Shown piece after piece: positions 31,990 through 34,881 of a DNA stretch of 34,881 nucleotides. Position numbers and translations under genes: made by a program. Location of the stretch: positions 1 to 34,881 of the forward strand of contig NIVC01004799.1 of NCBI GenBank assembly GCA_002269645.1, given 5' to 3'. Numbering within the stretch: the stretch's first letter is position 1; every line of letters begins with the position of its first letter. A model generated the notes under the pieces. That model had not been told where the DNA came from. It searched no databases and saw only the letters and a program-made list of their open reading frames with translations. This DNA comes from Macrostomum lignano. Its lineage: Eukaryota.

Positions 31990-34024
31990 TTAAGTTATTT
32001 CGGTTTGTGGCCGTTCCAAATATGCGGTCGCAGCAAAATCATATCCTGCTGATGTGCTACCACAAACGGCTGCACCACGAATAAAATGTGCGGCATCTGC
32101 TCCTCCAGTTCGAGCACCAAAACCCATAAGAGTTCCCGTTTTATCTAAATCTCCCCAAGTTCCACTATCATATGTAAAAAAGTTTTGCCCAATTAGCGTA
32201 TATGTATTAGCTGATACATTGTATGTGCTTATTTGATACCAAACTCTTTGATTTAAAATATTAATTTCAAAAAGATGCCAATCGCCGTTATCAATATTTG
32301 CATAAGTTATCGTTTGATCGGCGTCGTTAAGAACATCATTACGAACTGTTGCACCGTCTGATTTTATATTACTCCAAAGAACCCCAACTCTGTCGCGCCA
32401 TTCACTAGCAAACACAATCAAGCCGGCGCGGGTTGTTAACCCGGATCCAAATTCAGTTGTTGGACGTTCGTGACAATATGCATAAAACCAAACCGCATCA
32501 GCACCATCTCCTGTAGAATTAGCGACTCGGAAATAGAAGGAGGCGGAGATATTACGAAAATGGGTGAAATTAAATTGCAACGCTCCAGACTGACCACTTG
32601 CTTCATCAGTAATTCTAGCTCCATTTTGATAATCAATATATACAGCATCTCCAACAAAACTTCCAGTTGGAAAAATATCACCGGCTGTGGTTGGGTTTTG
32701 ATATCCAGTCCAATTGCAAATTACAGGCTCGTACAAAGCGGCATCGATTGCAGGTATTCCATCCAATTTTATTTTATCGTTAAAAGACATTCGGCCATCC
32801 GCCGTTTGTGTTACTCGCGTATCAACATAACCTTTAGTAACAACAGAACTGTTATTGTTTATAGTAGAGATATTAGTAATTGTATTACCTCCCATATCAA
32901 TTGATTGATTAACCACTCCCAAATTTAAATCAAGAATTGTAAACGTCTGTCTATAAATCTGGAAGGTTGACAGACCCGGGTTGGTTGAACCCGAGGTTGA
33001 TGTAAGACAGAACAATCTGAAATATGAATATGTTTTATCAAAATTTTGTGTGACATTAATTGTTTGAGTTGAGTTATTTATTGCTACAGAACTATCCGCA
33101 GGTATTAATACGTCCCAACTTGTATTGTCATTACTTCCTCAAATCGCCATGATGCTGGGTGCTCGTTGAAGGTGATGGCCTACCACGTAAATCAATTTAT
33201 AACACATTATTGCGGAAGGGCATTGACTTGAATCCAATAATCGGTTTGAGTATTATTTGTTGCCCAATCTGTTGAATCATTACCATCAAACGCTTTCCAA
33301 CTTGCAAAATCAGTTGTATTAAATGCAGTGCTTGCGGTTATTGCAAAACCATTTCCACTCCAATCTGCCATGGTAGGTATGTGACCAGTTTCAACCGTTT
33401 GGAATCGATCCTGCTTTAAGGCTCCACCTCCAACTAAATTATCAACCTCCGTTTTGGTATAGGAATCAGTTATATCTCTTTTTAAATTTAAGGAATTATC
33501 AACTTCAGTTTTGCTATAAGAATCAGTTATATCTCTTTTTAAATTTAGGGAATTATCAACTTCGGTTTTGGTATAGGAATCAGTTATATCTCTTTTTAAA
33601 TTTAGGAATTATCAACTTCAGTTTTGGTATAGGAATCAGTTATCTCTTTTTAAATTTAATGAATTATCAACTTCAGTTTTGGTATAAGAATCGGCCGTAT
33701 TGCGTTTTAAATTTAATGAATCATCTATTTGAGTTCGAGAATAAGAATCAGTTATATCTCTTTTTAAATTTAACCCATTGTCAACCTCTGTTTTGTATAT
33801 GAATCGGCTACGTTCCGTTTTAAATTTAGAATTATCTATTGAGTTTTGGTATAGGAATCTGCAACATTTCTTTTTAAATTTAGTTTAGTATCAACTTCAC
33901 TTTTTTTATAACCTTCATCTTCATTAATATATCGGTTATCTCCGAATGTAACACTTATTCCACCAGACGTACCACCACCAGTACTTGATGTTCCGTTCCA
34001 TGAGGGTGTTCCAGAAAATAACAT
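31990..34024 (-). pseudogene. Fibre/spike-like protein: 19-aa repeats, discoidin (F5/8 type C) domain, neck motif, L-type lectin domain; 5' half frameshifted
   Basis: ATG at 34024. About 8 YTKTEVDNSLNLKRDITDS repeats (33445-33910). Discoidin-like AITAS...WKAFDG...W...WIQV...GSNDNTSW...YSYFRL (33000-33360). MGGNTITN...VVTKGYVD. Lectin-like GQSGA...GDGADAVWF...GFGARTGG...H (32020-32640). The 3' 341 codons are open. Confidence 0.75.
33445..33910 (-). repeat. 57-nt coding tandem repeat in the fibre-like gene, ~8 units
   Basis: Eight TTTAAATTT cores spaced 54-57 nt apart. Confidence 0.9.
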
Positions 34025-34075
34025 TTTTTACTGTCTATTTTATAGAGTCTAAAATATCTTAAATACTTCGTGGTT

Positions 34076-34472
34076 TACACGAGCTTCATTCGAAAGTCGA
34101 TATAAAAAATACAACGCCGCTTGCCGCAATAACTTTTATCAAAGTTTGAAACTGTTCGTGATGATCTCCACATAAACGATTTTTAGTATGATTAAATTTG
34201 TCTTTTATTTCCTGTAACGGAGGAAGCGCGTATGAATCAAAAAAATAAACAAGTTTTGGTTTTGAATAAACTGCTGACCAATGAACACCATTTTCTTTTG
34301 TTGTTTCAATATTAACAATGAAACATCCATATCTTGGTAAGTCTTTTATCTCATCCCGCATAACACATCTGAATGGTTTTATTTTTAACTGCCGCGCCCA
34401 ATTTGTTAATTCGATATTGCTTGTTGTGTCTGTTCCATATCTTTGTTTAAAATCATCCCACGTCATGGTCAT
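34076..34472 (-). pseudogene. Adenain-type cysteine maturation protease with a 1-nt frameshift before the catalytic Cys
   Basis: IVN...GVHWSAV...YFFDSY.LPP (His, Asp). QTF-DKSYCG is restored by adding one T at 34141-34143, placing TGC at 34126-34128. Confidence 0.88.
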
Positions 34473-34691
34473 TTTATGTTCCTGAAAAACTCTTGGTTTT
34501 AGTTAGTTTCGTAGGTGTGGGTTTTAACAATTCCTTTCTTATTTATCAGTTGTAACTGCCTTAATTTTGCTAGTTCTAGTTCGTAATTATCTTCAGCTTT
34601 TTAACTTTTTCTGATTGTTTTTTTAGTAAATTATTTTTATTATTACCCATTTTACTATAGGAAACGACAAAGTCTCGAACCTTTGGTTCGG

Positions 34692-34881
34692 CTAAACCTG
34701 TTTTATACGTAAAATTATTGTTATTGACTGCCCACCAAAACTTATTAATCTATCGCTTTCATCTACAATCCTAATATAAATTGATTGAACATTATATTGA
34801 TTTAATGGGTAATATATTGGGGTTTGAGGTGAACAATCATTTTCTCTCCAATTGGAACAGCAAGAAATGGGATTGAATAAA
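34692..34881 (-). pseudogene. C-terminus of a penton/minor capsid-like protein (frameshifted, runs off the window)
   Basis: Reconstructed VPIGEKMIV.PQTPIYYPL...IYIRIVDESDRLISFGGQSITIILRIKQV* resembles the Polinton minor capsid C-terminal pattern; one frameshift and one in-frame TAA. Confidence 0.7.

Follow-up and report, generated by a model that had tools for sequence, protein, structure and literature searches.

The closest described counterparts of the gene reported here are the fibres of protist Polinton-like viruses (PLVs). In the available text of PMC12220804, these are modular and phage-like, combine phage-tail repeats with laminin G_3, collagen, and H-lectin or discoidin domains, and are proposed to stand as homotrimers on the penton. 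Our locus has in common with them a long modular gene, the phage-tail repeats, a domain of the ConA superfamily (laminin G_3 in the PLVs), and a module of the H-type lectin or discoidin kind. It differs in how these parts are combined, as the PLV discoidin is described as occurring alone, paired, bordering a YadA head, or joined to patatin, and laminin G_3 supplies the ConA-type module there. Furthermore, most PLV fibres carry a Peptidase_S74 chaperone, which the fibre described below lacks, and the PLV hosts are protists. The available text of the same source contains no L-type lectin and no chain that joins a discoidin domain to one.

Fibres of other Polinton relatives are described in less similar forms. 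In Tetraselmis PLVs, the tail fibre and discoidin are separate genes in the text available (bioRxiv 2025.10.09.676808; PMC9356565), and the Ltf fibre of Gezel-14T (PgVV) was found in purified particles (bioRxiv 2022.07.28.501842). Ltf, like our product, is a phage-fibre-like repeat protein, in its case of a Polinton-like virus; it has T4 gp36-like repeats and belongs to an algal virophage, and the word lectin is absent from the available text. Oomycete Polintons have a beta-helix fibre (PMC10748475, available text), and in the adintovirus paper (PMC8502044) ‘Fiber’ and ‘Lectin’ are defined as map labels for the related MELD viruses, with ‘Fiber’ used once on the adintovirus maps of the available supplement. 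The accessible text of a vertebrate Maverick survey (PMC8097293) has 0 mentions of fiber, lectin, or receptor, and fiber goes unmentioned in that of PMC4028283 and bioRxiv 2026.06.19.733378. Outside the Polintons, the porcine adenovirus 4 fibre carries added galectins (cited in the available text of PMC4587935) and is likewise a trimeric fibre of an animal virus with carbohydrate-recognition domains, but it consists of a canonical knob with tandem galectins, a single lectin fold, on an adenovirus shaft rather than phage-type repeats. In the literature that we covered, to which subscription papers or supplements could add, no Polinton is described with an L-type lectin head or with a discoidin and an L-type lectin together. 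What seems new here is the domain pairing, unreported for Polinton fibres in that literature, as modular lectin fibres themselves have already been described.

The window, by which we mean the whole 34,881-nt stretch of Macrostomum lignano DNA that was analysed, begins with 24.3 kb of satellite-rich eukaryotic DNA with a GC content of 0.50. An AT-rich, gene-dense element extends from an AGTAGT at 24355 to the window end. This AGTAGT (24355–24360, plus strand) is a Polinton left end that lies directly 3′ of a 32-bp host satellite, at the point where both the GC and the repeat content shift. It is followed by a gene for a protein-primed family B polymerase (26188–29793, plus strand), unbroken over 1201 codons, that matches Pfam DNA_pol_B_2 (E 8e-18) and PHROG 1907 (E 1.5e-19). 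The element is an integrated Polinton/Maverick, as the sequence-only reading had held, since it has the protein-primed family B polymerase and, where it joins the host DNA, the (AGT)2 terminal motif. AGTAGT is the commonest terminal motif of vertebrate Mavericks (PMC8097293, available text), and the element shares with animal Mavericks, Polintons, and adintoviruses, as described in the parts available of PMC8097293, PMC8502044, and PMC4028283, this end, the polymerase, and putative pX-like, protease-like, and penton-like genes. Its gene order departs from the vertebrate plan. The flanking host DNA and the range over which the group is known suggest an animal host.

Between the left end and the polymerase, and distant from the capsid block, lies a pX-like ORF (25105–26118, plus strand) that has a pair of hydrophobic motifs of the pX-like kind and also several repeats of the GxGLxL type; its match to Pfam Adeno_PX (E 0.011), with adenovirus core-protein motifs, is below the cut-off. 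Just inside the left end, nested inverted repeats at 24365–24602 (25 nt at 100% and 24 nt at 92%) form one long hairpin (z −9.9 vs 100 shuffles), which is possibly a single-strand replication origin of the terminal repeat; an Rfam scan of 24000–34881 returned no family. Another ORF, of 218 codons (30973–31629, minus strand), has a strongly hydrophobic stretch (Kyte-Doolittle 19-mer 2.15) and no library match, and it has some likeness to the two-helix SLATT-type proteins of Polinton-like viruses. On the host side, the insertion site is right after 25 copies of the 32-bp satellite (23543–24354), which overlaps a Gln/Ala-rich, coding-looking stretch (23220–23500). Further upstream, a host endonuclease III / NTH1-like gene is visible as two plus-strand exons (14087–14308 and 15379–15513) with a GT-AG intron between them (HhH-GPD E 6e-7; 4Fe-4S motif E 0.012).

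The minus strand near the window end holds the C-terminal end of a putative penton-like (minor capsid) gene that runs off the window (34692–34881), a putative adenain-like cysteine protease gene whose frame shifts close to the 3′ end (34075–34502), and, downstream of these, the fibre locus. The protease-like label depends on His/Asp/Gln/Cys motifs, and the penton-like label on one motif; Pfam, PHROG, and PDB searches gave no match for either gene. Among the scanned ORFs of the element, which is cut at 34881, there was no match to a retroviral-type integrase, a packaging ATPase, or a major capsid protein (hexon); these genes, like the right end, would lie beyond the window.

The fibre-like gene occupies 31990–34024 on the minus strand (first ATG 34024, stop 31990; 2035 nt, ~678 codons) and contains five parts in order: a Gly/Ser-rich start, 19-residue repeats, a domain of the discoidin/F5-8C type, the neck, and lastly an L-type lectin. 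The start (33923–34024), a putative capsid-vertex anchor, has a hydrophobicity maximum of −0.04 and found no significant match among 125 fetched proteins. Because the sequence holds four large open pieces (33839–34027, 33639–33884, 33210–33608, and 31993–33138), a single ~680-residue product is deduced and not read. By eye, across three frames, there are about 8–9 frame changes, all within about 33140–33890, and every one falls within the repeat array or within the discoidin domain: one frame runs through the second half of the discoidin into the neck and the lectin, and another holds three repeats with the first half of the discoidin. The former frame is 382 codons long, so that the joining of its three parts can be seen in the sequence itself, and the neck motif MGGNTITN...TKGYVD is in frame with its partners on both sides.

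Homologues carry the reading across the breaks. A frameshift-aware alignment to a protein with an unbroken discoidin domain (P0032) is collinear over them, with 62 of 164 residues identical and a score of 215 against 36–45 in 10/10 shuffles, and it places three frame changes in the discoidin, near 33230, 33170, and 33140. A second alignment, to the repeat homologue P0041, passes repeat unit 5 with two frame changes, and none of these aligned paths contains a stop codon. The alternative of two or more genes, with a stalk-repeat gene followed by a neck-plus-lectin gene that starts at an internal Met, would suit the closest lectin relative, P0001 (332 residues, 56% identity), which has a neck-like start and no discoidin, as well as the separate tail-fibre and discoidin genes of Tetraselmis PLVs noted above (bioRxiv 2025.10.09.676808). 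It is, however, hard to reconcile with a 382-codon frame that starts with one half of a discoidin domain and a 133-codon frame that ends with the other, or with the gap of ~70 nt between the halves, which fits the 24 missing profile positions, and we judge it very improbable. These observations support reading the locus as one gene. The sequence-only reading had put forward a corrected single protein of ~680 residues with a Gly/Ser-rich start, about eight 19-residue stalk repeats, a discoidin/F5-8C domain, a neck motif of trimeric fibres, and a ConA/legume-type lectin, and this description is borne out, both by the span, the shared frames, the position of the breaks, and the collinear P0032, and by the evidence for each part given below.

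What the frame changes mean for this copy is a separate matter. They are absent from the 3.6-kb polymerase and from the 1.15-kb 3′ part of the fibre gene, and they are grouped within the window's final 1.7 kb. Homopolymer runs are not rarer in the polymerase (10.3 per kb) than in the broken part (7.9 per kb). Frame changes are likewise present in the protease-like gene and in a small ORF rich in Lys beside it (34075–34650, minus strand), so the damage is regional rather than specific to the fibre. Indels that bring no nonsense codons and are crowded near the end of the record are more in line with error than with neutral decay, and the frame changes are probably local sequencing error in a stretch of low coverage. 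The fibre gene could instead be a truly decayed pseudogene with real frame changes, which would alter the state of this copy and not the identity of the gene. Some 8–9 frame changes in 750 bp, two broken neighbours, and the tendency of repeat arrays to slip are all in keeping with decay, and the 96% of vertebrate Maverick loci described as degraded in the available text of PMC8097293 raises its prior. Nevertheless, neutral change should also have struck the intact 3.6-kb polymerase, nonsense codons would be expected and none are seen, and the damage is limited to those last 1.7 kb, which leaves decay the less probable account, though one with a real share.

The stalk (33434–33904, minus strand) consists of eight 57-nt (19-residue) repeats of the YTKTEVD type, and the count of about eight is obtained both with Tandem Repeats Finder (33437–33904, period 57, 8.3 copies, score 523) and by anchored measurement, which gives units of 54, 56, 57, 57, 54, 57, 57, and 57 nt. 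Differences among the 5 full-length units are distributed 32/16/43 over the three codon positions, as coding repeats would show, a small sample that counts for little. The repeat is matched by chain d of PDB 8hqz, the L-shaped tail fibre of a T5-like phage (E 3e-9), with which it has the 19-residue YTKTEVD-type unit in common; the latter belongs to a tailed bacteriophage, and the likeness is confined to the repeats. It also matches PHROG tail-fibre families 5004 and 10305 and lies below a match to Pfam PTR (PF12789), which among 17 scanned proteins matches a single one, weakly (E 0.016). Searching 3404 candidates with the 133-residue piece yielded 68 homologues, through the repeats in all those inspected (18 fetched). 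The other domains of these homologues vary (Peptidase_S74 chaperone, laminin G_3, YadA heads), and the best of them, P0041, ends in a C-terminal Peptidase_S74 fibre chaperone.

The domain that follows (32950–33400, minus strand) is split over frames, and the support for a discoidin / F5-8 type C identity is good but indirect, as it comes through the two halves and an unbroken homologue. The first half matches positions 2–40 of Pfam F5_F8_type_C (E 0.0008–0.002, below the curated cut-off). The second half has no Pfam match of its own but is 44% identical to P0015, which in turn matches positions 65–117 of the same profile (E 9e-5, also below cut-off), and both halves are collinear on phrog_17517 (positions 9–64 and 97–179). 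In the ESM Atlas, P0032 has a score of 0.97 to F5/8C clusters, while Pfam and PDB sequence searches with it gave no match. Both P0032 and P0015 carry discoidin plus neck as a unit, with neither lectin nor repeats, and among GenBank phages there was no match for P0006 or P0032.

The neck, together with a second short stalk motif, spans 32749–32922 on the minus strand (MGGNTITN...TKGYVD at 32895–32821) and accounts for the whole predicted trimer interface. When three copies of the neck plus lectin were modelled, the prediction scored 0.77, and the best of 3 controls scored 0.01; the runs showed at least 59% contact agreement and a pLDDT of at least 67. The mark set for this score was attained by 21/30 microbial proteins solved as pairs and by 0/23 solved as single chains, and among eukaryotic proteins by 17/29 pairs and 0/30 single chains, a test that is calibrated on two copies and ignores the alignment. 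All confident contacts are within residues 7–64, and the lectin heads are not among them. There is a weak likeness between the neck and those of solved tailspikes (E 0.09–0.16; 9m4c and 9m4d at 0.13–0.16), and the trimer pass may therefore reflect memory of such structures. The chain is predicted to homotrimerise through the neck alone.

That the tip domain (32047–32739, minus strand) has an L-type (legume/ConA-like) lectin fold is well supported by structure prediction. A model built on a 33-row alignment has a mean pLDDT of 79.9 and mostly 85–97 over the domain; the alignment-free model has a pLDDT of 32. Foldseek ranks ERGIC-53 (E 5e-12), VIP36, and legume lectins at the top, the ESM Atlas gives 0.90, and VIA-align has L-type lectin domains in every one of its top 10 rows (Z 16.6–21.1), with ERGIC-53 aligned over 208 residues at an rmsd of 2.9 and Z 21.1. 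Many predicted viral proteins have the fold at lower scores. Direct sequence searches with the 382-residue piece found no match in Pfam, NCBIfam, PDB sequences, or GenBank phages, and the lectin itself has no match to Pfam PF03388, PF18483, or PF00139, which 5/21 homologues match, all below cut-off. A profile search against PDB sequences pointed to laminin-G only (neurexin, SHBG), an identity that we dropped because L-type lectins structurally outrank other folds. Solved cellular L-type lectins have the fold in common with the model (Z 18–21, rmsd 2.8–3.2), along with the Ala-Asp and Gly-Gly loop motifs. They are 13–18% identical to it, and the window's domain differs from them in apparently lacking the loop Asn, in having neither a signal peptide nor a membrane anchor, and in belonging to a distinct subfamily found otherwise in large prokaryotic proteins.

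Conservation suggests that this lectin likely has a binding site, with a ligand and a calcium need that are not predictable. The Asp of the Ala-Asp motif is present in 31/33 aligned rows, the two Gly of the Thr-Gly-Gly loop in 32/33 and 27/33, and Glu180, Arg277, and His285 in 32/33 each. We take the Asp and the Gly-Gly to be the counterparts of ERGIC-53 Asp121 and Gly251/252, a correspondence made by motif. Mapped in the same way and not by superposition, the position of ERGIC-53 Asn156 holds Asn in 0/33 rows, and the position before it in 1/33; two homologues compared with solved lectins (P0013 and P0022) gave no alignment. The mannose contacts of ERGIC-53 are Asp121, Asn156, and Gly251/252 (PMC3912170), and with the mapped Asn absent, canonical Ca-dependent mannose binding is not assured.

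These results bear on whether the protein, as a trimeric virion fibre, could be something other than a dual binder of host-cell glycans: one of its domains might be structural or bind protein or lipid, or its target might be a helper virus, mucus, or bacteria. The seemingly missing Asn would accord with this, as would the functional diversity and many ligand types of discoidin domains (PMC9356565, available text), the prokaryotic origin of the named lectin relatives, and the dependence of some Polinton-like viruses on giant viruses in the available text of bioRxiv 2022.07.28.501842 and bioRxiv 2025.10.09.676808. The near-invariant set of Asp, Glu, Arg, His, and Gly-Gly, on the other hand, suggests a binding site that is maintained, and lectins at fibre tips are a recurrent viral solution to attachment. 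We consider this alternative unlikely, though not negligible.

A search of representative proteins with the lectin piece gave 40 matches. The closest relatives, P0001 (56%) and P0002 (65%), are ENA proteins, and with the window's lectin they form a 100/100 clade on a long branch in an unrooted tree (33/33 rows) whose deeper forks are not settled and which gives no direction of transfer. A scan of GTDB with a homologue profile yielded 42 loci. In 15 of them the lectin of the window finds a match with an E of 1e-3 or less, as computed in a small database; the strongest are 31–33% identical and come mainly from Patescibacteria/Saccharibacteria. Scanning GTDB with the window's own lectin gave 0 relatives among 21 pattern matches. 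At the nine GTDB loci examined (L001–L009), the domain is in or at ORFs of 666–3680 residues, and from the 27/62 ORFs scanned, the neighbours are mostly housekeeping or surface-protein genes, with phage-type genes at one locus (L003). These nine loci show an L-type lectin subfamily that falls outside Pfam cut-offs and resides in giant proteins that lack annotation, from Patescibacteria/Saccharibacteria and a handful of further bacteria; beta-lactamase-family genes adjoin two of them.

Lectin, repeat, and domain searches returned no full-length homologue with the architecture of the window's fibre. An F5/8C match was found in 0/21 lectin-bearing homologues scanned and in 0/24 with precomputed domains, and 0 relatives of 670–2000 residues appeared among 7991 candidates, a count of little weight. 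One relative, P0111, joins the lectin to CBM_4_9, and others join distant lectin forms to PA14, so chains with two binders do exist among the prokaryotic relatives. The stalk repeat, the discoidin-plus-neck unit, and the lectin are each found elsewhere in different company. This points to assembly by shuffling, though not as yet among Polinton copies, and indirectly supports the modular architecture that the sequence-only reading had proposed. Its broader claim of a trimeric fibre-type architecture with two named folds is supported as well, given the stalk match at E 3e-9, the trimer score of 0.77, and a lectin Z of 21. The sequence-only interpretation is thereby borne out in part, and the extracellular virion stage and glycan-determined tropism that it also suggested are conjectural.

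The gene might also be a captured host or bacterial lectin or adhesin carried by the element with no role in a particle, as its best solved fold matches are cellular cargo receptors and the stalk repeat is found in YadA-type adhesins too. Yet the best cellular lectins are no more than 13–18% identical, and the gene has no signal peptide, membrane anchor, or intron, a GC content of 0.27–0.41 like the element rather than the 0.50 of the host, and a place in the block of capsid genes, and capture is accordingly a far-fetched explanation. On the whole, we think it likely that the locus is one Polinton gene for a homotrimeric attachment fibre, with its sugar binding and its place on the virion drawn from analogy, and that the frameshifts reflect sequencing error sooner than decay.

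In the mechanism that we propose for this attachment fibre, the order and folds of the domains and the capacity to trimerise are computational results; vertex docking, sugar binding, a virion stage, and tropism are all inferred by analogy. Without a signal peptide (there is no hydrophobic stretch), the protein would be made in the cytosol and then added to the capsid, where its short N-terminal tail would dock on the penton vertex as in adenovirus fibres. The repeats would build a thin trimeric stalk from which three discoidin domains project midway, and beyond these the neck would re-zip the three chains, leaving three lectin heads to splay at the tip without mutual contact. A particle so equipped could attach multivalently to glycans of mucus or the cell surface; the lectin would be its main head for receptor binding, and the discoidin would serve as a second binder, weaker or accessory. 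The fibre itself may have been assembled from modules that circulate among phage fibres, the fibres of Polinton-like viruses, and large prokaryotic surface proteins.

The general idea of shuffled lectin fibres in Polinton-like elements is already published, which limits the surprise. The findings would widen the phage-derived modular fibre repertoire, known from Polinton-like viruses of protists, to include a probable animal element, and they add an L-type lectin subfamily common to a Polinton fibre and giant prokaryotic proteins. More tentatively, and as a possibility rather than an expectation, there may be an animal Polinton lineage with a dedicated receptor-binding fibre that displays two unrelated glycan-binding folds per trimer, takes its tip lectin from a prokaryotic subfamily that is frequent in giant proteins of the Patescibacteria type, and has its gene intact in the genome. 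If so, the window's lectin, P0001, and P0002 would mark a family of such fibres. According to the available text of PMC8097293, virions of animal Mavericks/Polintons are unobserved, and the fibre offers a concrete attachment candidate for how these elements would recognise cells. The unbroken and well-folded lectin head is a small expressible domain, which makes the question of a receptor and an extracellular stage one for the bench, and, if the reading is true, it would be the first direct handle on both in an animal Maverick.
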